Shown: positions 13,441-56,902, numbered from the stretch's first letter. The stretch is DNA of 64,000 bases from an uncultured archaeon (GCA_964372465.1 CAYJRA010000002.1:16024-80023); one strand, 5' to 3'. Notes: a model not told the origin generated them from the sequence alone. Numbers and translations: made by a program.

Positions 13441-14340
13441 GTGAATTGGATGGATAAAGAAGTACTAGAAAAATATAAGAAAGCAGGAGAAATAGCTGGT
13501 AGGGCAAAAATATTAGCTAAGAAAGAAATAAAAAGTGGGGTCAAATCCCTAGATTTGGTTGAGAGAATTGAAAATTTTATAAAAAAAGAAGCCAATCTCG
13601 CATTCCCCGTAAATCTTTCGATAAATGATATTGCTGCTCATTGTACACCAGATATTAACGATCAAACAGAATTAAAAGACGGGGATATGGTTAAACTAGA
13701 TTTAGGAGCTCAGATAGATGGTTACATCGCAGATACTTCTGTGTGTGTGAAAATTGGAGAAAATTCAGATCCGTTAATCAAAGCCAGTCAAGATGCACTG
13801 GACTCATTTATTAACGAGTTGTCTCCAGGAAAAACAATTGCAGAGTTGTCTACTCTTGTGAATGAAGTTATTGTTAGTCATGGTTTTAATCCTGTCAGAA
13901 ATTTGGCTGGGCACTCCTTGGATCAATATACTCAGCACGGACGTATATCAATCCCAAATAACAAATCAACATTACAATATCAATTCAAAGAAGATGATGC
14001 AATTGCAATGGAAGTTTTCGCAACAAATGGTGAAGGTTGGGTTGTTGAATCTTCTCCTACTTTGATATTCATGTTTTCAAAACCAGATGCAGTAAGAATA
14101 AGAGAGTCCAAATTGGTTTTGCAGCATATAACTGAAAATTATAAAACACTCCCCTTTGCTAAAAGGTGGCTGAAAGATATTTGCAATCCACTTTCTCTTC
14201 ATATGGCATTAAAAGAGTTGACCACTAAGAGAATTATAATGGAATATCCTCCGTTAAGAGAAAAAGCTCATGGCATAGTTTCGCAGAGTGAAGAGACACT
14301 GATTGTAAAAGACAAACCAATTGTAACAACAAAAATTTAA
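13441..14340 (+). CDS. map: methionine aminopeptidase, type 2 (archaeal)
   Basis: AHCTP, DMVKLDLGAQIDGYIADTS, GHSL and EETLIV motifs. GTG at 13441; ATG at 13450 behind AAGTGA is an alternative start. Confidence 0.9.
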   Translation: MNWMDKEVLEKYKKAGEIAGRAKILAKKEIKSGVKSLDLVERIENFIKKEANLAFPVNLSINDIAAHCTPDINDQTELKDGDMVKLDLGAQIDGYIADTSVCVKIGENSDPLIKASQDALDSFINELSPGKTIAELSTLVNEVIVSHGFNPVRNLAGHSLDQYTQHGRISIPNNKSTLQYQFKEDDAIAMEVFATNGEGWVVESSPTLIFMFSKPDAVRIRESKLVLQHITENYKTLPFAKRWLKDICNPLSLHMALKELTTKRIIMEYPPLREKAHGIVSQSEETLIVKDKPIVTTKI

Positions 14341-14612
14341 TACATTATTTTGAAATCTTCAAAATCGTTTTTGAATTTTTCATAATTCAATTCTATATTT
14401 TCAACTTTTGATAACAAAGAACCTCTTTTAATATATTTCAACAATATTTCTATTTTTTCTTTTTCACTCTCGGCTATAATCTCAACTCTTCCATCATTCA
14501 AATTTTTGACACATCCAGTTATTTTTAAATTATCAGCAATTACTTTTGTAAATGTTCTAAAATTTACTCCTTGTACTTTGCCAGAAACAAATAAATGAAC
14601 TCTTTGCATCAT
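14337..14612 (-). CDS. acyP: acylphosphatase
   Basis: 91 aa, VSGKVQGVNFRTFT and GCVKNLNDGRVEI signature. Confidence 0.85.
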   Translation of the reverse strand: MMQRVHLFVSGKVQGVNFRTFTKVIADNLKITGCVKNLNDGRVEIIAESEKEKIEILLKYIKRGSLLSKVENIELNYEKFKNDFEDFKIMY

Positions 14613-14620
14613 TTATATTA

Positions 14621-15307
14621 TTAAAATTGAAGGAATTTAGCTTTACTTTTATCTGTTTTTATTATTACTTCATCTTTTGGTTTTAGTTCAATATATTCTT
14701 CATAATTGTCGCTAATCACATACGCGTCTTCTCTATTGATTTTAATTTTTATTATGCTTTTTTTATCAACAATAAAATTTCTTTTTTCATCGCTATGTAA
14801 ATTGTTAAATACTATTCCGATTCCATCTAAAAACTCTTTACCCCCGGCAGATTTATAATATCCCGTAGAACCAAAAGGTGTGGCTATAATTGCCCCATCT
14901 CCAATTAAGTCGTTTATTTTATTTTTCCCAAATTTGATAGAAAATCTTATTGCTTTTGTTGGTAATTTATGATGTACGTTTATTTCATTCAGAGCAGTCA
15001 ATTTTTTTTGTTTTGCGACAGCCGTCAATTTAGCCATTTCTTTTATTTTAAAATCATTTCTTTTAATTTTTTCCAACAAAGTTTCTAGGTATTTTGGCGT
15101 ATAGTCACATTTTCTACAAATGTTACTAGTTTTAATAGTCAATTTTGGGATTTCTGGATATAGTCTCTCACTACAAAGGATTGTGCCGTCTCCACCGTTA
15201 CTTATAACAATATCCGGGTTTTTATTTACAATTTTAAAGTCATGTTTTCTCACCATATTTTCTATCTGTTTATTTCTCTTAGGACTTACTATAGCAATTT
15301 TGAACAT
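14621..15307 (-). CDS. nadK: NAD kinase (short form)
   Basis: GGDGTIL, NEINV and GDGAIIATPFGSTGYYKSAGG motifs. Confidence 0.85.
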   Translation of the reverse strand: MFKIAIVSPKRNKQIENMVRKHDFKIVNKNPDIVISNGGDGTILCSERLYPEIPKLTIKTSNICRKCDYTPKYLETLLEKIKRNDFKIKEMAKLTAVAKQKKLTALNEINVHHKLPTKAIRFSIKFGKNKINDLIGDGAIIATPFGSTGYYKSAGGKEFLDGIGIVFNNLHSDEKRNFIVDKKSIIKIKINREDAYVISDNYEEYIELKPKDEVIIKTDKSKAKFLQF

Positions 15308-31570: not shown

Positions 31571-32686
31571 TTAATTGTTTATTAACATTGAGAGTTTATT
31601 TAAGGCATTTAGTTTATCTTTTTTTTCTAGTTTTGCACTTTGAATGATTTCTCTCAAAGAGGCGATAACATCATCATAATGATTTTTATTAATCTCATAT
31701 GGTATTTTATCTTTACCTCCTACACAAAATGAGAATTTTGCTGGATCTTTCCAGCTAGGTTTTGAGCCATAGATTAATTCAGAAATCAAAGCCAATGATC
31801 TTACAGTTTTTTCACCAACCCCATGGAGTGAAATTAATTCTTCATAGTTTTTAGGTTGAAATTCATAAATTTTTCTTAGAGTATTCCAACTTCTTTTTGA
31901 TATATCTATAGGAAGTATTTTATGATCTCTATGCATGTCAAGAACATCTATATTATTAAAGTCAAGAAATTGACCCAGCATTGTTTGATGGGATAATCTG
32001 AAATATTTACTCAAATGTTTCGGGTTGTCTTTAACTATATCCAAACTTATATCTCTTGTTTCTTTGCTCTCTTTAGCAACCATGTTCAACCCCTCAACTT
32101 TTATATCGCAACAAATTGCCTTATGGGGTTCTTCTACAAAAGAATTTACATTATTATGGATCCAGTGGTATCTACGTGCATATTTTATCTCACTGTTTAA
32201 CCCCTGTTGAATTACAACCCATTTACCGCCTTCTGTGACAACGAAAGAATGATGGTATAAAGAAAACCCAGATTGTATTAAGGAATTGTCGACTTTGGCT
32301 ACAATTTTGCTAGTATATTTTAATTTTTCTATTTTACTAGATGACAAAGAAAACTTATTTCCAATAATTTCCAATTCTTTTAATGTTTTTTTCGATGCAG
32401 TCCCCTTACCACCAGCTATAGCTATATTAGATTCTTTTGTGTTTAACACCAGTTTAAGAGCTCCCAAAGTAACGGTGGTGCATCCACTTGAGTGATGATC
32501 GTAACCCAATATACATGATAGAGCCTGAAACCAATAAGGATCGGATAGTCTCTTTAGAAGATTTTCATTCCCATATTCTGAAATTATTATATCTGATATT
32601 GGTTTAGCTAAATTAACCATTCTTTTAAATAACCATTTTGGTGTTGAGCCTGAATGAAGAGGCAAATTTGCTATTCCCAATTTCAA
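31571..32686 (-). CDS. DUF763-family protein with HhH motif
   Basis: N-terminus GIANLPLHSGSTPKWLFKRM is typical of DUF763. LHGVGEKTVRSLALISELIYG is an HhH. Confidence 0.65.
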   Translation of the reverse strand: MKLGIANLPLHSGSTPKWLFKRMVNLAKPISDIIISEYGNENLLKRLSDPYWFQALSCILGYDHHSSGCTTVTLGALKLVLNTKESNIAIAGGKGTASKKTLKELEIIGNKFSLSSSKIEKLKYTSKIVAKVDNSLIQSGFSLYHHSFVVTEGGKWVVIQQGLNSEIKYARRYHWIHNNVNSFVEEPHKAICCDIKVEGLNMVAKESKETRDISLDIVKDNPKHLSKYFRLSHQTMLGQFLDFNNIDVLDMHRDHKILPIDISKRSWNTLRKIYEFQPKNYEELISLHGVGEKTVRSLALISELIYGSKPSWKDPAKFSFCVGGKDKIPYEINKNHYDDVIASLREIIQSAKLEKKDKLNALNKLSMLINN

Positions 32687-33266: not shown

Positions 33267-33656
33267 TTAATTTTTTTCTTTCAAGTTATATTTGTATATT
33301 TTATACATTTCTTCAATTTTTTCATCATCTATATGTTTTCCAAAAGATTTATGCGGTAACAACCCACCGCCAAACGATTTAGGTATATGCATCAACTCAT
33401 GGATTAGAGTCTTATCCTGTTCTTCTTTACTTAACTTATCAAATTTATGTGATATAACTTCAATAACATAATGTGCCCTCATACTCAACGCTTTTTGCCA
33501 AATTTTAGGAAAACTCCATATACGTGCTAAAGCTCTAGATTTTGATCCATAACTTCTTATACAAAACACTCTTTCCATATCAACATGTTTTATTTGTAGA
33601 ACATCTACTAGACGATTTAATCTCTCTTTTATATCTAAAGCCGTTTCGAATTTCAT
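33267..33656 (-). CDS. small putative zinc metallopeptidase (HExxH)
   Basis: 129 aa, LIHELMHIPKSFGGGLLPH. Resembles the archaeal predicted-metallopeptidase family. Confidence 0.6.
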   Translation of the reverse strand: MKFETALDIKERLNRLVDVLQIKHVDMERVFCIRSYGSKSRALARIWSFPKIWQKALSMRAHYVIEVISHKFDKLSKEEQDKTLIHELMHIPKSFGGGLLPHKSFGKHIDDEKIEEMYKIYKYNLKEKN

Positions 33657-33694
33657 AGAATCAGTTAGTTTAATTTATTATATAAAGATTCATT

Positions 33695-34690
33695 CTAACT
33701 TCCCATATATTTTACAAATATAGTTTTTGCCTGGTCTTCACTTTTAACCCCTGATACTATAGATCTACCATTTTTATATAGTGAAATTTGCTTATCACCA
33801 CTTTTAAAATGGAGCAAATATTTGTTATAATAAACCTCTCCCGATTTTTTTAATCTGTCAGAAATGTTTTTGAAATTGTTAATTCTCGTATCAGTATTTA
33901 TCTGAAAAGAATTTTGTCCACACATTCGTGTTATTTTTGATCCAATAGTCCCATTTAAGAAAACGAAATTCTTTTTTACGCAAGTCTCACATTTTGGATT
34001 TTTATTTATATGCAATGACTCAAAAGTATCATTTAGCATATCCACTCTAAAAATTTTTTTTGGCGCCTTTCCTATAGAAAGTATTTTTAATGCTTCCCTT
34101 ATCTGTATAGATGCTATTATAGAAGGAAGAGAATTAGATATACCAGCACTTTCACATGTTTCTAAGTCTTCAGTTCTTGGTATTTCTCTAAAAACGCATC
34201 TAAAACAAATTTTCTCAGGCAAAATATTGAAACTAGCACCAACGCTTCCAATTACCCCGCCATATACCCACGGAATTTTGTTTTTAATGCAAATATCGTT
34301 AATAAGAAATCTACTCTCGAGATTATCAGTGCCGTCAACGACTAAGTCAATATCTTTTAACAGTTTCCAGGCATTTTTAAAATTAAAATCATCAACCATT
34401 GCATTAATTTTTACTTTTGGGTGAATGTGATGAATTCTCTTTTTAGCAGCTATAGCTTTCGGTACGCCTATATCGCTTTTTGTGTATAATATCTGATTTT
34501 CCAGATTTCTTAATTCTACAAAGTCTCTGTCTATTACAGTTAATTTTTTTATACCATTTTTAGCTAATAATTCAGCAGATCTACTTCCTAAAGCGCCAAC
34601 TCCTATTACAGCTACATGCTTTTTTGACAATTTATTATGACTGAATTTGATATTTTTTGTTCTTAATTTTGTTATGTTCATACCTTTCAT
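33695..34690 (-). CDS. ThiF/MoeB/HesA-family E1-like adenylyltransferase with about 90-aa C-terminal extension
   Basis: VAVIGVGALGSRSAELLAKNGIKKLTVIDRDFVELRNLENQ. CxxC pairs CFRC and CETC. Extra C-terminal domain ...ISLYKNGRSIVSGVKSEDQAKTIF. Confidence 0.85.
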   Translation of the reverse strand: MKGMNITKLRTKNIKFSHNKLSKKHVAVIGVGALGSRSAELLAKNGIKKLTVIDRDFVELRNLENQILYTKSDIGVPKAIAAKKRIHHIHPKVKINAMVDDFNFKNAWKLLKDIDLVVDGTDNLESRFLINDICIKNKIPWVYGGVIGSVGASFNILPEKICFRCVFREIPRTEDLETCESAGISNSLPSIIASIQIREALKILSIGKAPKKIFRVDMLNDTFESLHINKNPKCETCVKKNFVFLNGTIGSKITRMCGQNSFQINTDTRINNFKNISDRLKKSGEVYYNKYLLHFKSGDKQISLYKNGRSIVSGVKSEDQAKTIFVKYMGS

Positions 34691-34723
34691 AAGGAAATTA
34701 AAATGTTAATATTAAAAATCACT

Positions 34724-36082
34724 CTAAAAACCGTTATTAAGCTCTTCTTTAAATATACTAATTACCTTGTTCTTTATCCCACCTGGCATGGTTTTAGAAT
34801 TAAATACGCCAAAGAATTTTTTATACAATTCGTCTTCCCTCTCTTTAGCTTCATCTAAATATTTTTGTTTGAATAATTGAATAACGGGTCCAGTCTCACC
34901 TCTTTTATATGCCAAATAAAATGCAAATAACAATTCATCTCTATTTAATCCACTGTCGTCATAAGGTATGCCGTGCTTTGTGGTTCCATTGAACAACGAA
35001 AACATTCTTGCATATTTTTCGTTGAACAGGTTTTCTCTAAATCCAAGATTCTTTACATCTACGCCTATTGCTTTCAAGAACACAAAAATTCTTGCACATT
35101 TTGTACACATGTGGCACCATTGGTTTTCTGGGGATGGCGGATAATTATCAGGGAAACAAGAAAATTGAAACTGTCCAAGATTTTTATATCTATTGTGTAA
35201 TATTTTTATTACAGCCAACTCGTTTATAGGCTCCACTATACTAAAAACGCCTGTTTTATTGTTAGTTATTATTTTCATTAGATTGCTTAATTCGATTGTC
35301 CAGTCGCTAGTTTGGTCAAAAACCGGATATGATCTGTAGCCCTCGGAATTTATGTAGAAATCATTACAGCTTTTTTCATTACCAAAAATAACAAATTTTA
35401 TTTTGTTTGCATCCACTATGGGTAAAGAATGCATGGCATATTGTGTTAATTCGCTTCCATAACCCCATTCTGTATCAGGTTTGTTAAAATTCGTAGCATC
35501 ACATAGATCATAAAAGTTCGTGTTGACTCTTACGATGTTTTTATTAAGTTTTTTTGAAAAAACCTTTGAGTATCTTCTTTTTATTTTAGTTTCTATTGGG
35601 AGCGATGGCGTTTCAAAATATATTAAATCATTGTCTAGTCCTATTTCATCACATATTCCAAGAGTGACTAGGCTTTCCTTTCCAAATGTAAAGTTAATCA
35701 ATGCTTTTTCATCAGGTTCAAAATCACTCTCAGGTAATTTCATATTGTAATCCTCAAAATCAAACTCTAGATTTATGAATTTCATTAAGAACTGTGAGGT
35801 GGATATCTTATCGGCATCTGTCGAATAGGGTATATATTTTATCATCATTTGATAAACCCACGGCTTCATTAATGGCTCTGCTGTGTTGAATTTAATTTTA
35901 TTTTCATCAAAAATCATAGGAAGATGGAAGGTTCCTAAGAATGGTAAATTGTCCAATAAAAAATTTTTCATTCCATTTTTGTAGTTTTTCCAAGATGTAG
36001 TATTATATCTAATGAAATATTTTCTTCCCAGCACATTCGTGTGCATTCCGCTTCTTGTTAAATGTGATTTTACTTCTAACAT
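34724..36082 (-). CDS. QueC-like / PP-loop-superfamily protein with degenerate PP-loop and N- and C-terminal extensions (putative)
   Basis: Motifs follow the order and spacing of QueC: TFGKES (for SGGxDS), FGNEKSCND...YPVFDQ, SIVEPINEL, FSCF, then CHMCTKCARIF (C-x2-C-x2-C-x-R). Confidence 0.45.
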   Translation of the reverse strand: MLEVKSHLTRSGMHTNVLGRKYFIRYNTTSWKNYKNGMKNFLLDNLPFLGTFHLPMIFDENKIKFNTAEPLMKPWVYQMMIKYIPYSTDADKISTSQFLMKFINLEFDFEDYNMKLPESDFEPDEKALINFTFGKESLVTLGICDEIGLDNDLIYFETPSLPIETKIKRRYSKVFSKKLNKNIVRVNTNFYDLCDATNFNKPDTEWGYGSELTQYAMHSLPIVDANKIKFVIFGNEKSCNDFYINSEGYRSYPVFDQTSDWTIELSNLMKIITNNKTGVFSIVEPINELAVIKILHNRYKNLGQFQFSCFPDNYPPSPENQWCHMCTKCARIFVFLKAIGVDVKNLGFRENLFNEKYARMFSLFNGTTKHGIPYDDSGLNRDELLFAFYLAYKRGETGPVIQLFKQKYLDEAKEREDELYKKFFGVFNSKTMPGGIKNKVISIFKEELNNGF

Positions 36083-36164
36083 TTTTCTGAATTAAACAAT
36101 TTTATTATTAACATAACAAAATTAGTATTTTGTATATAAAAAATTATACAGTTTTTTTCTTTAT

Positions 36165-37211
36165 TTACACATATTTATTGCTAGTTGATAATGCGCTTGC
36201 CATGATTTTTGAGAGAACTTTTTTGAATGGTACACCATAAAGTTTGGTTATATTTCCTATTGCACAGTCACAAGTATCAGGACCCAATGCCGGATTGGTA
36301 TTACAGTCGATAAAGTAAATTCTTTTTTTATTATCCATCCTTATATCAAACTTTGCATAATCTGCCATTCCTAACAGATCAAAGGCCTTCTTAGATAATC
36401 TTGTAACCCTTCCACTATTTTTGAATTTTTCATAATAATATGAATCTTCTTCTAACCAAGTTGCATCGAAACTACAGAAATTATATTTTCTTTTTTTTGT
36501 TGATTTGAAAATTTTTTCGCCAATATATACACTATCCTTTCTTCCCTCTAGTACTATGGCTGATAATTCCCTACCATCGATAAATTCTTCAACAACTACT
36601 GGTGATTTATAAGTATTTATCAGATATCTCAATCTTTTTCTTAAATGCTTCTCATTCTCACTTATAGCGTCATTCGTAATGCCGACACCACCATGATAAT
36701 TATTAAGTTTTGTTATCACGGGATATTTGGTTCTTTTTGATATTGGCTCTTTCCAATTTTTGACTAACTGATATTTGGGGGTCGGTATATCATGTGCTAT
36801 CAATAATTCTTTAATTAAAACTTTGTTGCTCGATAAAGTAAATGTATACATGCCGCTTCCTGTATAAGGAATTTGAGCTAAATCCAATACTGCTGGTATG
36901 CATGTGCTCAATAATTCCGTTCCTCTCACAGTATCGACTAAGTTCAAAACCAAATCAGGTCTATCTTCTTGAATATTATTCATCAAAGTTTCGTCTCCGG
37001 GGTATAATTTTGCCTCGAATCCCATTTGTTTTAAAATTTTTTGAAGAACTTTTGCTCTCCCAAACACTTCTTCTTCAGATATGTATGCTTCTTCTGTTGG
37101 AAAATATTCTCTCTCTGCCTTGCTGTATGCTATACCAACCAGTTTTATATTACGTTTTTGAAGAATTTTCATTCCGTTTTTTAATGGAGGAGGATCAACA
37201 CTTTCAGTCAT
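36165..37211 (-). CDS. ATP-grasp ligase, D-Ala-D-Ala-ligase-like
   Basis: IKLVGIAYS...EEEV N-domain. KYPVITKLNNYHGGVGI, VVVEEFIDGRELS and YAKFDIRMDNKKRIYFIDCNTNPALGP. Met14 (37172) is an alternative start. Confidence 0.8.
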   Translation of the reverse strand: MTESVDPPPLKNGMKILQKRNIKLVGIAYSKAEREYFPTEEAYISEEEVFGRAKVLQKILKQMGFEAKLYPGDETLMNNIQEDRPDLVLNLVDTVRGTELLSTCIPAVLDLAQIPYTGSGMYTFTLSSNKVLIKELLIAHDIPTPKYQLVKNWKEPISKRTKYPVITKLNNYHGGVGITNDAISENEKHLRKRLRYLINTYKSPVVVEEFIDGRELSAIVLEGRKDSVYIGEKIFKSTKKRKYNFCSFDATWLEEDSYYYEKFKNSGRVTRLSKKAFDLLGMADYAKFDIRMDNKKRIYFIDCNTNPALGPDTCDCAIGNITKLYGVPFKKVLSKIMASALSTSNKYV

Positions 37212-37230: not shown

Positions 37231-37242
37231 AACTCTCACTTT
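37231..37242 (+). repeat. 12-mer boundary repeat copy 1 (AACTCTCACTTT)
   Basis: Exact copy. Overlaps the ndk stop codon and lies 20 nt upstream of the ATP-grasp start. Confidence 0.9.
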
Positions 37243-37802
37243 CCAAGAATCAGTTCTTCATCCACTCTTTTGTAAGAAACGATTTCCTCTTTTTTGAACC
37301 AAAAATTAATTTCCTTTTCAGCATCTTCTTTACTAGTTGAAGCGTGTACTAAATTTCTAGAAGCTCTCTTTTGGTCATTTGCATTCTCTAAGGAGTCAGC
37401 AGAATAATCACCCCTGATAGTTCCAGCATCTGCTATTCTTGGTTCCGTTGTACCCACTATTTTCCTAACTATCTCAATAGCATTTGATCCTTCTACAACA
37501 CTTAAAACAACAGGCCCCAATAAAAGAAAATCTACCAGCCAAGATTTTACCATTAAACCATATTCTTTGTAATCCATTTTGAATTCTCTGCCTTTGTCTC
37601 TATAGCTTCTTTCACCCTTCTTGCCAATGTTGATTAACCATTCTTTATCACTAGGATAAAAACTTTCGGCTTGCTTCTTTGTAGGATAAGCCATTTTCAA
37701 TGCAACTATCTTTAAGCCAGTTCTTTCAATTCTTTTGTATACTTCCCCAACGAGACCTCTTTTTACCCCGTCAGGCTTGACCATTAAGAATGTTCTTTCC
37801 AT
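37236..37802 (-). CDS. ndk: nucleoside diphosphate kinase with internal insertions
   Basis: MERTFLMVKPDGVKRGLVGEV, TIRGDY and NLVHAS (catalytic His). 188 aa versus the usual roughly 140-150, because of an insertion after FYPSD. Confidence 0.9.
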   Translation of the reverse strand: MERTFLMVKPDGVKRGLVGEVYKRIERTGLKIVALKMAYPTKKQAESFYPSDKEWLINIGKKGERSYRDKGREFKMDYKEYGLMVKSWLVDFLLLGPVVLSVVEGSNAIEIVRKIVGTTEPRIADAGTIRGDYSADSLENANDQKRASRNLVHASTSKEDAEKEINFWFKKEEIVSYKRVDEELILGK

Positions 37803-37848
37803 TTATTTTCACTTTTAGTTTTGATAGAAAATGTTAAATACTTTATGT

Positions 37849-37860
37849 AACTCTCACTTT
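37849..37860 (+). repeat. 12-mer boundary repeat copy 2 (AACTCTCACTTT)
   Basis: Exact copy. 47 nt upstream of the ndk start, 24 nt after the stop of the 97-aa membrane gene. Confidence 0.9.
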
Positions 37861-37884
37861 TGGAAAAAAAGATAGAAAACAGAT

Positions 37885-38178
37885 CTACCATTTTTTCTTT
37901 GATAAATAATAACTTGAAACGAGAGCCAAACCAATAAATAATATTATCAACCCCCCTATTATCCACACGCCCTGAATCACATTGAAATATTGGCCAACCA
38001 GGACAGCTAAACCAACGCCGACAAGAATCAAACCCATAGTTAGTCTATCAATTCCGTTACTTTTACCTTCTTTTTTGCCATTAGGTTTCTTGAATTTTTC
38101 TCTAATATAAGTAGTAAGTATACTTGAGACAGCAATTGCAACTACTGTTATTGTTAAAAAATCCCAACCGCTTACCAA
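37885..38178 (-). CDS. small membrane protein (3 TM)
   Basis: 97-aa ORF, TTG start behind GAGTGAT SD. Hydrophobic helices separated by a Lys-rich loop. Confidence 0.5.
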   Translation of the reverse strand: MVSGWDFLTITVVAIAVSSILTTYIREKFKKPNGKKEGKSNGIDRLTMGLILVGVGLAVLVGQYFNVIQGVWIIGGLIILFIGLALVSSYYLSKKKW

Positions 38179-38294
38179 GTTATCACTCGTTTTATTTATA
38201 GGTTAATAAATGATTTTTCTTATTTAAATTCTTTTTTGAAAAAAACAGCACGGAAATCAAAACAATGGATCATAGATATAATCGATCCACATAA

Positions 38295-38306
38295 AACTCT
38301 CACTTT
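38295..38306 (+). repeat. 12-mer boundary repeat copy 3 (AACTCTCACTTT)
   Basis: Exact copy in the divergent intergenic region, 59 nt upstream of the plus-strand gene at 38366. Confidence 0.9.
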
Positions 38307-38365
38307 TTTTACAAAATCTATACATAGTTATAAATTCATACACATCGAAATTTAGAAAAGATAAA

Positions 38366-38686
38366 ATGACTGAAGTTGTTTATGGCACTCTATTTCCTTC
38401 CGTTAGACCTAAATTGGAAGAAAGAGGATTTTCATTACAGGAAATAAATCAAGGAGATGTGATATGGGGTTTTGATGGAGTTACTAAATATTTCCCAGAA
38501 GATAATTATATCAGAGAATCTGTTAACGGATCACCGTCTTTAGCTTTAAAATTAAGGAAAACATCGACGGGGGTCACACTTATCATTAATTCTTTGCCGT
38601 TTCAATCAAAACACCATTTAGATAAGGCACCTTTAAAAGAAGATGATATTGTTCGCACGGTTGATGAATATATTAAAAAGATGTAA
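38366..38686 (+). CDS. hypothetical protein
   Basis: 106-aa ORF. No family recognised. Flanked on both sides by the 12-mer. Confidence 0.5.
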   Translation: MTEVVYGTLFPSVRPKLEERGFSLQEINQGDVIWGFDGVTKYFPEDNYIRESVNGSPSLALKLRKTSTGVTLIINSLPFQSKHHLDKAPLKEDDIVRTVDEYIKKM

Positions 38687-38697
38687 ACTCTCACTTT
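38686..38697 (+). repeat. 12-mer boundary repeat copy 4 (AACTCTCACTTT)
   Basis: Exact copy. Its first base is the last base of the TAA stop of 38366..38686. It lies 6 nt from the stop of the convergent gene. Confidence 0.9.
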
Positions 38698-38702
38698 GTT
38701 CG

Positions 38703-39092
38703 TCAATCTTTTTCATCTCTATAATAACTCTCTTCTTCTTCTAATTTGTTTGGAGCAAAAACCAATTGATCATCAGGTATTCCTAAACCACGACCGTATT
38801 CTATTATCTCACTCCAAGTAGATTTATCTGGAGTAACTCTAAACACTTTCTTTTTGAAAACAACTATCAGTTCCCCTTCTCTATAAAAATGTGCATAATA
38901 AGGTTTGTCTGATAACAGGTTTTTTTGGACATTTTTAATCACACCTTTAATTTTATTGGCTGAGACGACTATCCCATACATTATCCATGGGTTTCTGTTA
39001 CTTTTTCTTTTGGCAAAGACTTTGAATTTGTTCAAAAACTTTGGATCTTTAAACTCTACATCCAACAAATTCCCATGATATTCTTTTTTCAT
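38703..39092 (-). CDS. hypothetical protein
   Basis: 129-aa ORF with GGTGG SD-like element upstream. No family confidently recognised. Confidence 0.55.
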   Translation of the reverse strand: MKKEYHGNLLDVEFKDPKFLNKFKVFAKRKSNRNPWIMYGIVVSANKIKGVIKNVQKNLLSDKPYYAHFYREGELIVVFKKKVFRVTPDKSTWSEIIEYGRGLGIPDDQLVFAPNKLEEEESYYRDEKD

Positions 39093-39128
39093 ACAACCAC
39101 CATCCCGATTTCATCTTTAATCACACAC

Positions 39129-39140
39129 GATTCTCACTTT
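39129..39140 (+). repeat. 12-mer boundary repeat copy 5 (GATTCTCACTTT, 10/12)
   Basis: Degenerate copy. 37 nt upstream of the start at 39092, 9 nt after the stop at 39149. Confidence 0.75.
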
Positions 39141-39148
39141 TGGAGTTT

Positions 39149-39562
39149 TTAGGCAATAAACGATAATTTATCCCCAACATCCACCCAATTATACTTAGAT
39201 TCAACCAATTCAACCATATATCTATACTTTTCTTTGGGTATATAGAATCTAAAAGGCTTCATCTTTGTTTTCTCAACAACTCTCAATTTATCGTCTGCCA
39301 GTATGACAGTTATAGGAAAGCTCATGAACCAAGTATGTATTCCTTCCGGATAGTCTATCTCAAACACCATTGCATCTTTCTTGGTAAACCTTTGAGTTTT
39401 GAGCACATCATATATGTACTTATTCTCAGTCTTGTATGGTATTAATCCCGCCATCAGCTCGAAAATTGACCTTCTGAATATTATATTTTCAGCCAGAACT
39501 CTCTCTTTCGTTCTATTTATTATTTTCATTCTAATTATTTCTATCCTGAAAAATTTAACCAT
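39149..39562 (-). CDS. DUF192-like protein
   Basis: Pattern ...ELMAGLIPYK...DAMVFEIDYPEGIHTWFMSFPITVILADDKLRVV...YMVELVES...VGDKLSF resembles DUF192. Met12 (39529) is an alternative start. Confidence 0.55.
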   Translation of the reverse strand: MVKFFRIEIIRMKIINRTKERVLAENIIFRRSIFELMAGLIPYKTENKYIYDVLKTQRFTKKDAMVFEIDYPEGIHTWFMSFPITVILADDKLRVVEKTKMKPFRFYIPKEKYRYMVELVESKYNWVDVGDKLSFIA

Positions 39563-39616
39563 GTGCTTCTAAGCCAGCCAGTTTTTGGTTCAACTTCAAT
39601 GCCGTTTTTCAAAATC

Positions 39617-39628
39617 AACTCTCACTTT
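39617..39628 (+). repeat. 12-mer boundary repeat copy 6 (AACTCTCACTTT)
   Basis: Exact copy, 55 nt upstream of the start at 39562, at the edge of an AT-rich spacer. Confidence 0.9.
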
Positions 39629-39856
39629 TTGAAAGATTAAGTTATTATCTAAAATAACATATATATTACTTTTATTATTTATTTTATCTATTGTATTAAA
39701 TATATTTTAATTACAATATATTTCTACATTATTTAATTAAAGAATATATTTAATCATGTATTATATAGAATATTTATTTTGCTAAAAATGCCCATTTCTA
39801 TAGATCTTTTTTTATTCTGAGAGGCTGGTTATTTGGGAATAAAACCAATTAAAAAA

Positions 39857-40219
39857 TTATTGCTGTTTAGACCAGTTTTTCCAGTATTTTGAGAGCCTTT
39901 CCAAAGCCAATGAAAATTGATGAGATAGTGTTAATTCCGAATATTTGTCTTTCCTATCAATCAGACCGGCCTTCCTTAAAATATCAAATGCGTCATAAGC
40001 AGTACCCCTAGCTATTTTCCGTGTAGTTATTATTTCATTTAAAGTGCTAGGTTTTTCTTTTAATGATAGCAAAATCTTGTTTGCAGCTTCTCTTGTTTTT
40101 TCATGTTTAGGGAATAAGATTTCTAGGAATTCTTCCCATGTAAATTCATTAAAATCAATTTTGTTTATTACCCATGTTTTTATCTGCATTTCATTCACTT
40201 TCGGCTTATGCGTCATCAA
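39857..40219 (-). CDS. putative winged-helix DNA-binding protein
   Basis: 120 aa. STLNEIITTRKIARGTAYDAFDILRKAGLIDR looks like a wHTH recognition unit. The ATG at 40216 is the likely start. Confidence 0.5.
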   Translation of the reverse strand: MMTHKPKVNEMQIKTWVINKIDFNEFTWEEFLEILFPKHEKTREAANKILLSLKEKPSTLNEIITTRKIARGTAYDAFDILRKAGLIDRKDKYSELTLSHQFSLALERLSKYWKNWSKQQ

Positions 40220-40369: not shown

Positions 40370-40669
40370 CTATTTCTTTCTTTCAGCAACTTCTTTTACT
40401 CTGTTTAATTTCATCATTACTCCTTCAATGGAATGAGCTAAGTCCTGGCCGTCTTCTGTTAATTCTATTACCTTTATTCTGCCTTGTTTCTTGAAGGATA
40501 CCAATCCCAGATCTTCCAACTCTTCTAATAGTTTTACGACGTGAGAATATGTGCAGTCAACATCTTTAGAAATTTGTGTTGCATACTTCGGACCTCTTTT
40601 CAAGGAGGTAATTATATTTACCGGTTTTAGCCTCAAAAAAAGCTTTGATAGGTCATTTTCGTTTATCAT
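40370..40669 (-). CDS. ArsR-like winged-helix transcriptional regulator
   Basis: 99 aa. GPKYATQISKDVDCTYSHVVKLLEELEDLGLVSFKKQGRIKVIELTEDG is a typical wHTH. Confidence 0.7.
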   Translation of the reverse strand: MINENDLSKLFLRLKPVNIITSLKRGPKYATQISKDVDCTYSHVVKLLEELEDLGLVSFKKQGRIKVIELTEDGQDLAHSIEGVMMKLNRVKEVAERKK

Positions 40670-40969
40670 TATAACTCTATTATATATTAAGGGAAAACAT
40701 ACTTATATAGTTTAGTCGTTTAATTAAAAAATATATTTAATGATATAATAAAAATAATATAATAATTAAAAACAGTATATTTTACAATATAAATTAAAAT
40801 TAACTTAAATAAAATATATAATAGAAAATATATAATAAAGTAAAAGTATGACGACTTTCCTGCAAGTGTGAGTTGATAGATTTTTGGATAGAAATATTTA
40901 CTAATGAGTAGTATTAAAACCTGATCATGCAAAACTAAAATCTGTAAAAATACAAATATTTATTGAATC

Positions 40970-42490
40970 ATGAACCACAATCAACCGTTTTTCATAGTTT
41001 TCGTTGTTAGTGTCAGCCTGTTTAGTGTTTTATGCGAATCAAAAGTGATAGTTACAGAAATCATGTATGACCCGAGAGGCAATGATAATAATCATGAATG
41101 GGTTGAGATATACAATGACGGGGATGAAGAAATTGACATTGTGGGTGGAGATAACGAAGGAAGCTGGCGTTTCAATGACGGGAGCAACCATAAGCTGAAT
41201 GAAAGTGAGTTTCAAGGCTATATGAGCATTTCTCCAGGCGAATATCTAGTGCTTGTGGACGATCCTGCTACTTTCTTACAGGATTTTTCAGACTACGAAG
41301 GTACTATAATCGATACCGTTATGTCCCTGTCAAATAATGGAGACACAATTCAATTGAGTGATAATGAGGGGAAGAATTTCTTTGAGATAGTAACATACAC
41401 TCCAGAGATGGGCGGGAAAAATGATGGGGATTCTCTTCAGTTAGTTGACGGCAGATGGGTGGCATGCTTCCCTTCCCCAGGTTTTGAAAACGATTGTTTT
41501 TTTGAAAAAGATATAGAAACAACATCAACTACTGTAAAAGAATCAGTTGCAAGCACGTCAACAATACCCACCACAACGACAGTTTCAACACAGACTACAA
41601 CTTCCAATACGATATTCACAACCCCTGTTGATACCAACAAATGCGATATTGGGATATCTGTAGTTACTGAGAAAAATGTATTCGATTTATCGGAAAAAAT
41701 AAAATACAGAATCAAATTAGAAAGTTTGAATTGTAATAAAAAAGGCAACAAAGTTATAATAGAACATTGGATAGATAATTCAAACAGCAGCAAAGTAAAA
41801 AATAAGGACAATTCTACCATTGAGTTTGTTTGTCAATATTCCAAGACTTATCAATGGACGCCTAAGAAGACTGGTAATTTCACCATAAAATCAAAAATAA
41901 TAGATGTTTCATGCCAAGATTCCAACGGAAAAAATAATGAATACAGTAAGGAAATATCCGTTAAAAGCAACAAAGAAACCATTAAAGAACAAGATTCTAT
42001 CATAGAAATCAATGAAATTAAATCGAAAGATTCTGTAAAGTTTGGCGAATCATTTATATTGGATGTTGATATATTCAGGGGCAACACATCCGAGAATTCT
42101 ATTGATTTTTGGGTTGAGGATGAAGATGGCGAGAAGGTTAGTGATGTGTATTCTTTACGTGTTAATTCAAAAATGACAAAATATAAATTTTCAATCCCAC
42201 TTTATCTTCTACCTAATTGTGATGGGAAATACAAACATGGAAAATATAACATTGTAGGCGAGGGTTTGGGTTTGATAACTTCAAAGGAAATAGAGATAAA
42301 CGAAAACTCCGATGTTTCGTGCAAAAACATATTCAAAGAAACAGCCAAAGAACCTGTTAAACAAATACTGAAAACAGAAAACACAACTCAGAAACCAGTT
42401 GTGGAGCCAAAAATTACAGGTTATTTCACTAAAATAAAAATGGGAATAATTGATTTTTTTAAGAATATTTTTATATCAAGAAAGAATTAA
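40970..42490 (+). CDS. secreted lamin-tail-domain (LTD) protein with Thr-rich linker, beta-rich repeats and hydrophobic C-terminal tail
   Basis: Signal-like N-terminus. VTEIMYDPRGNDNNHEWVEIYNDGDEEIDI is typical LTD. TSTTVKESVASTSTIPTTTTVSTQTTTS linker. Tail MGIIDFFKNIF. Confidence 0.75.
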   Translation: MNHNQPFFIVFVVSVSLFSVLCESKVIVTEIMYDPRGNDNNHEWVEIYNDGDEEIDIVGGDNEGSWRFNDGSNHKLNESEFQGYMSISPGEYLVLVDDPATFLQDFSDYEGTIIDTVMSLSNNGDTIQLSDNEGKNFFEIVTYTPEMGGKNDGDSLQLVDGRWVACFPSPGFENDCFFEKDIETTSTTVKESVASTSTIPTTTTVSTQTTTSNTIFTTPVDTNKCDIGISVVTEKNVFDLSEKIKYRIKLESLNCNKKGNKVIIEHWIDNSNSSKVKNKDNSTIEFVCQYSKTYQWTPKKTGNFTIKSKIIDVSCQDSNGKNNEYSKEISVKSNKETIKEQDSIIEINEIKSKDSVKFGESFILDVDIFRGNTSENSIDFWVEDEDGEKVSDVYSLRVNSKMTKYKFSIPLYLLPNCDGKYKHGKYNIVGEGLGLITSKEIEINENSDVSCKNIFKETAKEPVKQILKTENTTQKPVVEPKITGYFTKIKMGIIDFFKNIFISRKN

Positions 42491-55086: not shown

Positions 55087-55617
55087 TCAATATTTTTTTA
55101 ATTCAGAAATGTCGTCAGGCAGATGATCAATTCCACTGAATTCCTTTACAACAATGGATTTTATTTTCTTTTTTAATTCCGGTTTCAGACTGGGATATGT
55201 CATCTCGTGTTTACCAATAGAATCACAATCGTCTTCAATTATAATATCTGGTAAAGGTTTAATTCTTTCAACGACATCTTTATAATTTTCGCCCGACCCA
55301 CGATGATATACTGTACCTCTAGGAAATTTATTTCTATCAAGAACAGATATTTCCGCCTTTATTCCTTCTTTAAATAAAATCCTTTCGTCTTCTCTTGCAC
55401 TTTTGGATTTCGTGAGTGCACTTAGATAACATATTTTTGCTCCTTGTTTTTCCCAATTTTGTAACTTTTTAACCACATTACCCACAGGAACATGAGATGC
55501 GTAATCTTTAACAGATTCATTCTTTTCGATAACTTGTTTTATTATTTCCTCTCTAGTATGACCAATTGCATCTTTATGCATGATTGTTGTTCCTTGAAGG
55601 AAGACAAGTATTTTCAT
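55087..55617 (-). CDS. hypothetical protein
   Basis: I start at MKILVFLQGTT (ATG 55617). The 30 extra codons of the track ORF run into the tRNA-iMet gene. Confidence 0.5.
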   Translation of the reverse strand: MKILVFLQGTTIMHKDAIGHTREEIIKQVIEKNESVKDYASHVPVGNVVKKLQNWEKQGAKICYLSALTKSKSAREDERILFKEGIKAEISVLDRNKFPRGTVYHRGSGENYKDVVERIKPLPDIIIEDDCDSIGKHEMTYPSLKPELKKKIKSIVVKEFSGIDHLPDDISELKKY

Positions 55618-55653
55618 AATAATACCATTAGCCGCATATTTTGAGTTGAAAAA

Positions 55654-55748
55654 TAGCGAGAGGAAGATTTGAACTTCCGACCCCAGGGTTATGAGCCCTG
55701 TGAGCACTCCATTGCAGTTTGTTTTACAAAAGGCTGCTCCATCTCGCT
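55654..55748 (-). tRNA. initiator tRNA-Met(CAU) with a 20-nt insertion in the D-loop
   Basis: AGCGAGA TG GAGC AGCC[TTTTGTAAAACAAACTGCAA]TGGAGT GCTC A CAGGG CTCATAA CCCTG GGGTC GGAAG TTCAAAT CTTCC TCTCGCT A. A1:U72 and three G:C pairs closing the anticodon stem are initiator hallmarks. Confidence 0.8.
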
Positions 55749-55772: not shown

Positions 55773-56849
55773 TCACTTAAAAACCTTTCTTTTAGCTAAT
55801 GAAATATAAACCTTTCTTCCCCGCGATCCACTTCTTCTTACCTTTTCATTTATGACACCGGTATTTTTTAAATAATTTAAATGGTGCCTAAATTGGACAT
55901 GGCTAATTTTCCCATACTGTTTTGAATATAGATCTCTCAATTCACTTGATGTAATAACATTTTGGGATTCAAGTAGTACAGCAATGTTTTTGTCAGTATC
56001 TTCCAACCTGTTTTTCATTATTTCTACTTTCATTGATTTTACTGATAATAATATTTTTTTGACATGATCAACAGTTATTCTATCAGAATTTTCGTCTTCT
56101 GCCAATCTACTGGCCTTTCTTAGGCATTCTATTCCAATCCTTACATCCCCGCCTCTGACTACAGCATGATTGGCACACAACAAAATCACACCTTCTTCAA
56201 CCACGCCACTTCTGAAAGCTTCTTTACATCTTTCAGTAAGAATTTTTTTCATCTCTTCCAAGGTGTAGGGTTTGAATTGTATTTCTTCTATATCCAAGCT
56301 GCTCATTATTCTTGGTTCCAAATTCATGAAAACATCCTTATAATTTGAGATGGCAACTATACCAACCTGATTTTCAACATATTGATTCAATCTAAGCAAA
56401 TCATACAATGCCTTTTCATCCCTTCTTATTAGTTGATCTATCTCATCCAAGCAGACAACAATACCTTTCTTTGTTTTTTTAATTCCATCAATTAATCTTT
56501 CCATTACTTCATCCTTTGAAACGCCTCTTCTTTGAACAAAGAATCCGAGTTCTGTAGTCAGTTTAGTTATTAATCCAAAAGAAGTGTTGTAATCCCACGT
56601 ATTGATATAAACTGGCTTGATTCCAGAATATTCTTCAAACTGCTTGAAGACGAATTTTACCGATGCTGTTTTGCCTATGCCAGGTGCCCCGTTTACAAAT
56701 ATATTCTGTGGCCTTCTTCCTTTGCTGGCAGGTTCTAAATTTTTAGCGATTAACTCAGTTTGCGATTCCCTGTGCGGGAGCATCTCAGGTAAATATTCTG
56801 GAGATAAAGCATTTTCATTTTTGTATATCTTTGATTCTTCGAACGCCAT
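55773..56849 (-). CDS. cdc6: Orc1/Cdc6 replication initiator
   Basis: Walker A GAPGIGKT, Walker B VVCLDEID, winged-helix C-terminus, 358 aa. Confidence 0.93.
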   Translation of the reverse strand: MAFEESKIYKNENALSPEYLPEMLPHRESQTELIAKNLEPASKGRRPQNIFVNGAPGIGKTASVKFVFKQFEEYSGIKPVYINTWDYNTSFGLITKLTTELGFFVQRRGVSKDEVMERLIDGIKKTKKGIVVCLDEIDQLIRRDEKALYDLLRLNQYVENQVGIVAISNYKDVFMNLEPRIMSSLDIEEIQFKPYTLEEMKKILTERCKEAFRSGVVEEGVILLCANHAVVRGGDVRIGIECLRKASRLAEDENSDRITVDHVKKILLSVKSMKVEIMKNRLEDTDKNIAVLLESQNVITSSELRDLYSKQYGKISHVQFRHHLNYLKNTGVINEKVRRSGSRGRKVYISLAKRKVFK

Positions 56850-56855
56850 AATTAA

Positions 56856-56898
56856 TTGATGTAAATAAATTAAGAAATAATAGTGTTTTTTACATCAA
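56856..56898. repeat. perfect 10-bp inverted repeat (TTGATGTAAA ... TTTACATCAA, 23-nt spacer) between the lysS stop and the cdc6 start
   Basis: Arms at 56856-56865 and 56889-56898, read directly from the sequence. Confidence 0.85.
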
Positions 56899-56902
56899 AA
56901 TC

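Follow-up and report, generated by a model that had tools for sequence, protein, structure and literature searches.

A directly repeated 12-nucleotide sequence at the module boundaries of a gene array in an uncultured DPANN archaeon, a candidate recombination junction beside two winged-helix genes

Why should a single 12-nucleotide (nt) sequence stand at the edge of gene after gene, always in the same direction, in one small part of an archaeal chromosome? The question is raised by a 64,000-nt stretch of DNA from an uncultured archaeon (GCA_964372465.1 CAYJRA010000002.1:16024-80023, here called the window), in which the 12-mer AACTCTCACTTT recurs within 2.4 kb. A preliminary description of the window offered three explanations: an operator or activating site for a shared regulator, an RNA processing or termination signal, or a cassette junction left by recombination. 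Comparison with related loci gives the third of these the best support – blocks of homology begin and end at the 12-mer, and modules have been inserted, replaced and reordered there. All of the evidence is comparative.

A scan of both strands of the window found exact copies of AACTCTCACTTT on the plus strand at 37231, 37849, 38295, 38686 and 39617, and a copy with two mismatches, GATTCTCACTTT, at 39129, the same six copies that had been picked out by eye. There was no sixth exact copy on either strand. The preliminary description had found no further full copy in the window, which holds for exact copies but overlooks two with one mismatch, at 39278–39289 (AAATTGAGAGTT) and 39497–39508 (AAAGAGAGAGTT), both within the open reading frame (ORF) of a DUF192 gene and in the same orientation as the others. 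A coding near-copy, AAAGTGAGAGGT, which encodes K-V-R-G, is also present in the DUF192 gene of several relatives (L005 5126, L006 5304, L166 11126, L173 1624 and L175 3206; related loci are referred to by number). The 12-mer is the most repeated non-trivial 12-mer of the window, while only ca. 0.015 exact copies would be expected from base composition. Matches with up to two mismatches number 25, against 10.4 +/- 3.3 in shuffled sequence, and none of 100 shuffles reached 25. Chance and low complexity are thus ruled out by the shuffles and the composition, as had been supposed.

Most genes in this part of the window lie on the minus strand, and the locus is described here in that direction. The motif then reads AAAGTGAGAGTT, the copy at 39617 is the first, or head, copy, and the copy at 37231 is the last. 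A single gene lies between each pair of consecutive copies, whichever its strand, which bears out the layout first described. The head copy (39617–39628, minus strand, exact) is 228 nt downstream of the stop codon of F1, a gene for a winged-helix protein. It is followed by the DUF192 gene (module 1, 39149–39562, minus strand), a gene found in slot 1 or 2 in most lineages, and by the degenerate copy, AAAGTGAGAATC on the minus strand (39129–39140), which is 8 nt past the DUF192 stop and 36 nt ahead of the start of a gene of 129 amino acids (aa). This 129-aa gene (module 2, 38703–39092, minus strand) occurs, among the arrays compared, only in the window. The next exact copy (38686–38697, minus strand) is at a convergent junction, 5 nt past the 129-aa stop and overlapping the stop codon of a 106-aa gene on the opposite strand (module 3, 38366–38686, plus strand), which has a motif copy on each side. 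The exact copy beyond it (38295–38306, minus strand) is at a divergent junction, 59 nt from the start of the 106-aa gene and 116 nt from that of a gene encoding a 97-aa membrane protein with a weak, DUF6249-like match (module 4, 37885–38178, minus strand). Another exact copy (37849–37860, minus strand) follows a run of seven T, 24 nt past the 97-aa stop and 46 nt ahead of the start of ndk, the nucleoside diphosphate kinase gene (module 5, 37236–37802, minus strand), which is in the array or at its end in almost all lineages. The last exact copy (37231–37242, minus strand) contains the TGA that is the ndk stop codon, with an ATP-grasp gene 19 nt further on, and this arrangement recurs in L002, L003, L082 and others. 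The overlap of two copies with stop codons, those of ndk and the 106-aa gene, is therefore as originally noted. For the minus-strand genes, the distances from motif to start codon are 19, 46, 116, 36 and 54 nt, from the last copy to the head.

The ndk gene of the window is 73% identical to those of two Candidatus Aenigmatarchaeota metagenome-assembled genomes (MAGs; L002 and L003) and 53–55% identical to those of two other archaeal MAGs (L005 and L006). Other genes of the window encode ribosomal proteins, EF-2, PolB, SRP54 and Orc1/Cdc6. From its ndk relatives, the window is a piece of the chromosome of a DPANN archaeon. Each of these four relatives has 5–6 exact copies of the motif, all in the sense of ndk and within a few kb of it, while 76 further ndk loci, mostly from Patescibacteria, have none. 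A scan of metagenomes with ndk as the anchor returned only short contigs for this clade. With F1 as the anchor, nine further groups of loci were found: L162–165, L166–169, L170–171, L172–173, L174, L175, L177–179, L180–181 and L182.

A count over 16 non-redundant loci (252 kb) gave 47 exact copies, every one in the sense orientation; none is antisense, and 0.04 would be expected per strand. These copies are partly orthologous between lineages and are not 47 independent events; the independent evidence amounts to roughly a dozen distinct junction types and rearrangements. No exact copy was found in 156 unrelated loci (1.94 Mb) or in the other 61.6 kb of the window, so that a motif spread through the genome is rejected. 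Ca. 10–20 kb was covered around each array, and the restriction of the motif to arrays thus applies to ca. 250 kb rather than to whole genomes. The motif is neither frequent nor randomly placed, and it is kept at the equivalent junctions of relatives; either of the opposite results had been named beforehand as grounds for giving up the idea of a meaningful repeat. Judged from the sequences compared, one clade of Aenigmatarchaeota has kept the array; JAGVVZ01, CAYMPD01, JABAOH01 and MFRS01 are among the assemblies with it. In L004 (AQYM01), from sister Aenigmatarchaeota and with an ndk 59% identical, 20 kb contained neither the motif nor F1. Neither the motif nor the arrangement is described in the searchable literature, where the motif occurs in no relevant context and PF27297/AF_0843, the family that F1 resembles, is likewise not described.

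Outside 12–13 nt, the information content of the aligned copies is at background, the exceptions being A, which is preferred at -1, and T, from -10 to -4; the maximal information over the 12 positions themselves is by construction, exact copies having been aligned. Degenerate copies at boundaries vary mainly at positions 1–2 and 9–12, and AGTGAG (positions 3–8) is the most invariant core.

In all of these arrays, a copy stands at nearly every boundary between modules of one (sometimes two or three) genes on either strand, and the units measure 391–3,000 nt. Toxin-antitoxin modules are among them. Copies are found at tandem, divergent and convergent junctions, the last between seven different gene pairs. 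Convergent examples include the 129-aa/106-aa junction in the window, adenylate kinase/PGK in L162, and DUF192/F23 in L006; a divergent one lies between the 106-aa gene of the window and its 97-aa neighbour. Coding regions press against the motif from both sides. Genes on the motif strand often stop at the TGA within it, as ndk does in the window, L002, L003, L006, L170 and L173, and as DUF192, adenylate kinase, SdpI-like and 141-aa genes do, while genes on the opposite strand end in a TAA overlapping the last TT of the motif. Between the motif and the next start codon there may be as little as 0–1 nt (the Nudix gene Nudix-A in L005, L006 and L173) or as much as 116 nt, and at several junctions there are just 12–25 nt between coding regions.

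When the arrays were compared with each other by blastn, homology was found to switch on and off at these junctions. The 106-aa module is shared from motif to motif by the window (38295–38697), L002 (2577–2977) and L003 (8060–8460), with different neighbours on both sides. Another module, F23-F24, is shared from motif to motif by L005 (6409–7238) and L006 (5507–6336); the cyclophilin module precedes it in L005 and follows it in L006. The long collinear blocks on the right-hand side begin exactly at a copy (L005 7800, equivalent to L006 9924). L002 and L003 are ca. 90% identical in DNA sequence, yet exactly one motif-to-motif segment has been replaced between them – it holds cyclophilin in L003 and an unrelated 469 nt in L002. 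One breakpoint between the same two loci has only one end at a copy, its other end lying within a Nudix gene.

The left flank of a copy goes with the module on its left and the right flank with the module on its right, and the two re-assort independently. The 3' end of cyclophilin has four different left neighbours (L003, L005, L006 and L173). Nudix-A occupies the first slot in L166; in L005 and L006 it comes behind pyrophosphatase, and in L173 behind ndk. In most lineages with an array, ndk has a copy ahead of it, and its upstream region adjoins five different neighbours. Gene families thus change slot yet keep their orientation relative to the motif. One apparent case of a gene flipped relative to the motif was rejected, the minus-strand Nudix gene of L003 being a paralogue (27–36% identical) of the plus-strand Nudix-A. 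Beyond the array, collinearity of the flanks extends over more than 4 kb.

The 129-aa module of the window, read on the minus strand, is bordered by the degenerate AAAGTGAGAATC on its left and by an exact copy on its right. Its closest homologue on a long contig, the only one examined, is 66% identical and lies on contigs with RecA, RecX, RNase Y and HU, a bacterial gene context in which there is no copy of the 12-mer. This indicates a gene shared with bacteria, and possibly one captured from them.

The head of the array is its most constant part. In all F1-bearing lineages with sufficient contig, the order is F7, F1, a spacer of 201–231 nt (77–86% A+T), and the first copy of the motif. The two winged-helix genes noted earlier beyond the sixth copy are these two. 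F1 (39857–40219, minus strand in the window) encodes a 120-aa protein like PF27297 'AF_0843' and is always directly upstream of the array; F7 (40370–40669, minus strand) encodes a 99-aa ArsR/TrmB-like protein and is upstream of F1 wherever the contig reaches. Across lineages, F1 proteins have 110–138 aa and F7 proteins 97–128 aa. The F1 family comprises 86 clusters, nearly all at least 57% identical, while F7 is 64–92% identical between lineages. In 21 aligned F1 sequences, there is no variation in the recognition helix RGTAYDAF or in the wing RKDKYS. An AlphaFold model of F1 (pLDDT 76) has a generic MarR/ArsR-like winged-helix fold. In the L166 lineage only, a fragment of an IS66-family transposase is directly upstream of F7 and a DDE_Tnp_1 gene is further off (L166 8390–8995 and 437–1498; L168 1761–2366).

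In the window the spacer between F1 and the head copy (39629–39856, minus strand) is 84% A+T and contains a TATA box, TTTAGATA (39646–39653, minus strand), which is conserved in relatives as TTTATATA. The box is 14–17 nt upstream of the head copy; in the alignment, the T/A columns 8–14 are invariant and the motif begins at column 33. Archaeal TATA boxes are usually centred near -26/-27 relative to the start of transcription. From this geometry, we infer that transcription would start within the head copy, at about T5/G6. The leader from the head copy to the first gene is ca. 80–87 nt in most lineages, regardless of whether that gene is DUF192, a 141-aa gene or a Nudix gene. It is longer in L170, L180 and L162 (138–202 nt) and apparently much shorter in L177. 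In the window it extends over 39530–39616 (minus strand) on the assumption that DUF192 starts at Met12 (ATG 39527–39529), the likely start as judged by the N-terminus of the family. The leader yielded no base pairs in RNAalifold and no match in Rfam, and a structured RNA, riboswitch or small RNA there is rejected. The head copy itself is a variant in L182 and L170. Some variants are shared within a locus – L182 has GAAGTGAGRGTT at its head and several of its junctions, and L173 has AAAGTGAGAGAT at its head and ahead of ndk.

The explanation that we put first, at a little under even confidence, takes the 12-mer as the core of a recombination junction in a sedentary array of modules, probably recognised by the adjacent winged-helix protein. 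It is the most economical account of the fixed orientation, the single copy at junctions of every type, the coding regions against both edges, the promoter-linked head copy, and the array as a hot spot of rearrangement. Modules would be integrated, excised and re-integrated at the 12-mer by an integron-like logic, with a head site beside a promoter and one site per module. Recombination would then take place at the motif itself and not just beside it. F1, possibly with F7, would recognise the 12-mer, and F1 bound at the head copy would gate the promoter of the array as well. F1 is singled out as the likely recognition protein since it is strictly linked to the array and unusually conserved; its invariant recognition helix and wing would match an invariant DNA target.

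Several observations weigh against a recombination junction. The first concerns the enzyme: except for the IS66/DDE fragments of the L166 lineage, no recombinase or transposase family was found within ca. 10 kb of any array, using Pfam searches of the window ORFs submitted and precomputed Pfam lists for the genes within 10 kb on either side in L162–L182. The 12-mer lacks the dyad symmetry seen in the core sites of known tyrosine and serine recombinases. Nor does it behave like attC, since DNA folding of 112-nt windows around 28 copies gave a mean z of -0.23, against -0.38 at random positions. L180 has a head copy only. Exact copies occur, rarely, inside intact genes (an epimerase in L166 and a DUF429 gene in L162), so the sequence of the motif alone does not force a junction. 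With spacers this short, a breakpoint anywhere between genes would lie near a motif. The modules consist mostly of housekeeping genes – ndk, adenylate kinase, pyrophosphatase, PGK, cyclophilin and Nudix. The modules in common diverge at the rate of F1 and F7, on which ground their recent horizontal transfer is rejected, and near-identical contigs from different samples show no polymorphism of modules. On this evidence the array appears to be vertically inherited and slowly reshuffled, not a platform for fast gene exchange. The divergence at the F1/F7 rate and the lack of module differences between strains imply that the agent of reshuffling acts slowly.

A second explanation and the main rival, possible though rather unlikely in our view, is that the 12-mer is purely a binding site for F1, F7 or both. 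The head copy would be an operator over the start of transcription and the internal copies would be roadblocks or insulators between tightly packed transcription units. The shuffling would then have no dedicated function; it would be ordinary rearrangement, or microhomology-mediated recombination between repeated sites, clustered at the copies because the very short spacers contain no other conserved, repeated sequence. Archaeal winged-helix repressors such as MDR1, Phr and those of the TrmB type bind just downstream of the TATA box. The head copy is placed where such repressors typically bind, overlapping the predicted start of transcription, with a small winged-helix gene next to the presumed target promoter. 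The linkage of F1/F7, ca. 210 nt of spacer and a first copy is found in every lineage examined, including L180, with its head copy only, and L182 and L170, with their variant heads. The generic MarR/ArsR-like fold of F1, the lack of a recombinase nearby and the vertical evolution of the housekeeping modules, several of them in nucleotide or energy metabolism, also fit a regulatory site.

The internal copies fit it less well. At the head, the site is in a promoter and the gene of a putative regulator is conserved beside it, while internally this is not so. There is no promoter to regulate at the convergent copies of seven gene pairs, or where Nudix-A starts 0–1 nt after the motif. A binding site that acts independently of strand needs no fixed orientation, yet 47 of 47 copies share one, and the motif is non-palindromic and present at every downstream boundary, promoterless junctions included, which differs from the sites of MDR1, Phr and TrmB-type repressors. 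The remainder of the window is equally compact and does without the motif. Operators are not usually conserved so strictly as to keep twelve exact positions across lineages in which the ndk proteins share just 53% identity, and the array is a hot spot of rearrangement relative to its flanks. A regulatory site thus appears to explain the head copy well, but the single orientation, the promoterless copies and the restriction to one locus poorly. Of the operator proposed in the preliminary description, the part that stands is the F1/F7-linked head copy at the predicted start of transcription; the convergent internal copies, their distances of 0–116 nt from starts and their fixed orientation do not agree with it. 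An element of the promoter at a fixed distance is rejected for similar reasons, since a TATA box at constant spacing accompanies the head copy alone.

It is improbable that the repeats are target-site duplications, made by an integrase or transposase with staggered cuts 12 bp apart at one specific target, so that each new module enters an existing copy and duplicates it. What such a process would leave is identical direct repeats between unique segments, exactly one per junction, behind an AT-rich leader that holds a promoter; the arrays have this plan, and so do CRISPR leader-repeat arrays and casposon target-site duplications. The lineage variants common to several copies of one genome (GAAGTGAGRGTT in L182 and AAAGTGAGAGAT in L173) can be read in the same way. 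Against this, no cas1 or casposase and, apart from the fragments in the L166 lineage, no transposase was found near any array, the modules have no terminal inverted repeats (their flanks carry no information), and duplication by itself leaves the reordering of existing modules unexplained. The differences from CRISPR are also large – repeats of 12 nt here compared to 23–50 nt, and 'spacers' that are whole genes of 0.4–3 kb compared to 25–70 nt. No cas families are found near the arrays, and the 12-mer has no palindromic character.

Least probable of the four, and very improbable in itself, is a role of the motif in RNA, as AAAGUGAGAGUU, whether as a processing site in a long transcript, an element of translational coupling like a Shine-Dalgarno sequence, or a terminator: the predicted start at the head lies inside the motif, so that a transcript of the array would begin with it, its GTGA forms an overlapping start and stop in L182, it stands at a Shine-Dalgarno-like spacing before the ATG of Nudix-A, and T-runs often lie ahead of it, but the array also includes genes of the opposite strand, whose ends are at the other edge of the motif, copies occur at divergent junctions, the distance to the next start codon varies from 0 to 116 nt, strong T-run terminators before some copies argue against one long transcript, and there is no conserved structure, Rfam match or fold signal. 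The suggestion of an RNA processing or termination signal accordingly finds no support. As an analogy only, the gene-junction signals of non-segmented negative-strand RNA viruses are also short, oriented signals at each boundary of a compact array; those act in RNA synthesis and on one strand, whereas here both DNA strands of a cellular chromosome are concerned.

Other candidates can be set aside briefly. An attC-like or hairpin site is excluded by the lack of a fold signal and of inverted copies of the motif, and integration at a tRNA gene by the lack of a tRNA at the locus. A replication origin with origin recognition box (ORB) elements is made unlikely by the 16 kb that separate the array from Orc1/Cdc6 and by copies that are not inverted around an AT-rich core. 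A centromere or partition site is rejected for the lack of a conserved ParA nearby, the fold match to AspA being that of a generic winged helix.

The closest known parallels to a sedentary array with recombination junctions are sedentary integrons and clusters of attC sites lacking integron integrases (CALINs). Archaeal integrons (Ghaly et al. 2022, PMC9668308) are among the systems with which the arrays were compared. Sedentary integrons and CALINs also consist mostly of single-gene modules, each bounded by one directly repeated site, with a head site beside a promoter and conserved genes. In these systems, too, relatives vary in the content and order of their modules, with breakpoints at the site that is repeated, as was found here, and ORFs extend into the site at their ends. 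The toxin-antitoxin modules of the arrays, and the presence of a gene related to bacterial ones, are further features in common.

The differences are as marked. The arrays have no gene for an IntI tyrosine recombinase, and no Phage_integrase domain was found in the ORFs and lists tested. The site is asymmetric and 12 nt long, while attC is an imperfect palindrome of 55–140 nt that folds as a single-strand hairpin. It also lacks the GTTRRRY core: the GTT of the motif is followed in the window by GATT, TACA, TTAT, ACAT or CTAA, none of which is RRRY. Junctions here often total fewer than 25 nt, genes lie on both strands, many with promoters of their own, and the cargo is mostly vertically inherited housekeeping genes. 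With no integrase nearby and no attC-like hairpin, the array is not an integron.

A bolder proposal, which must be considered doubtful as it stands, is that the arrays represent a previously undescribed, archaea-specific means of capturing and reshuffling gene modules. Such a system would use a 12-nt asymmetric site, a dedicated F1 protein (with F7), and a recombination enzyme that is either unrecognised or encoded in trans, and would have neither IntI nor a folded attC; housekeeping genes could be re-ordered behind one controllable promoter. If the 12-mer is a recombination site, the integron problem of how to capture, store and reorder genes at a fixed place in the chromosome would have been solved twice, by different mechanisms. 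The second solution would belong to DPANN archaea, a group in which little is understood of how genomes change, and its site would be far simpler than attC. F1/F7 and AAAGTGAGAGTT make a concrete protein-DNA pair that can be tested, and the motif can serve as a marker for such arrays in metagenomes. Even as no more than an operator or insulator, the 12-mer would stand out among archaeal cis-elements for its strictness and its placement. An oriented copy at each boundary, convergent ones included, would then suggest that protein roadblocks insulate genes from each other in ultra-compact genomes.

The 188-aa product of the ndk gene of the window matches the Pfam NDK model in two stretches and carries an insertion relative to it. 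Its best relatives outside the Aenigmatarchaeota (L007–L081) are 45–52% identical and mostly from Patescibacteria (the candidate phyla radiation, CPR), which suggests a type of gene common to DPANN and CPR.

Directly past the last copy is a conserved, collinear cluster (33267–37211, minus strand) that encodes the ATP-grasp ligase, which is like D-Ala-D-Ala ligase, a 452-aa protein with a weak likeness to MurL, a ThiF-family enzyme, and a 129-aa protein like 'phage metallopeptidase'. It may be a module for peptide ligation or modification. Beyond it, a gene for a DUF763 protein with a helix-hairpin-helix (31571–32686, minus strand) is intact in the window and in L002. In L003, a close relative, the equivalent gene (14247–15076) is split into three ORFs, apparently as a pseudogene. 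On the other side of the array, F7 is separated from a divergent gene for a secreted LTD-domain protein (40970–42490) by a second very AT-rich intergenic region of 300 nt (40670–40969), which can be aligned even between distant relatives.

The Orc1/Cdc6 gene of the window (55773–56849, minus strand), with Cdc6_lid and AAA domains, adjoins the gene for lysyl-tRNA synthetase, and a replication origin may lie near 56850–56900, ca. 16 kb from the array. In the whole window, the only Rfam match at the gathering threshold is a borderline tRNA close by (55654–55718, minus strand; 29.1 bits compared to a gathering score of 29), and ARAGORN found none. It overlaps the 5' end of a mechanically called ORF (55087–55707), and may be either a false positive or a tRNA that is atypical or interrupted by an intron.

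Three observations concern individual relatives. The contig ends of L172 match L173 in inverted orientation over 66 and 192 nt at 100% identity, probably an artefact of assembly. L050, from the MAG 'Nanobdellati archaeon KA27', has an AT-rich family of 12-mers, ATAATTATCTAT and shifted versions of it, 12–14 times in 20 kb, which is probably a tandem or dispersed repeat. In L177 (104–2869), and also in L178 and L179, the gene for the Pus10 pseudouridine synthase contains an intein with an Intein_splicing domain and encodes 921 aa, compared to ca. 405 aa in other lineages.

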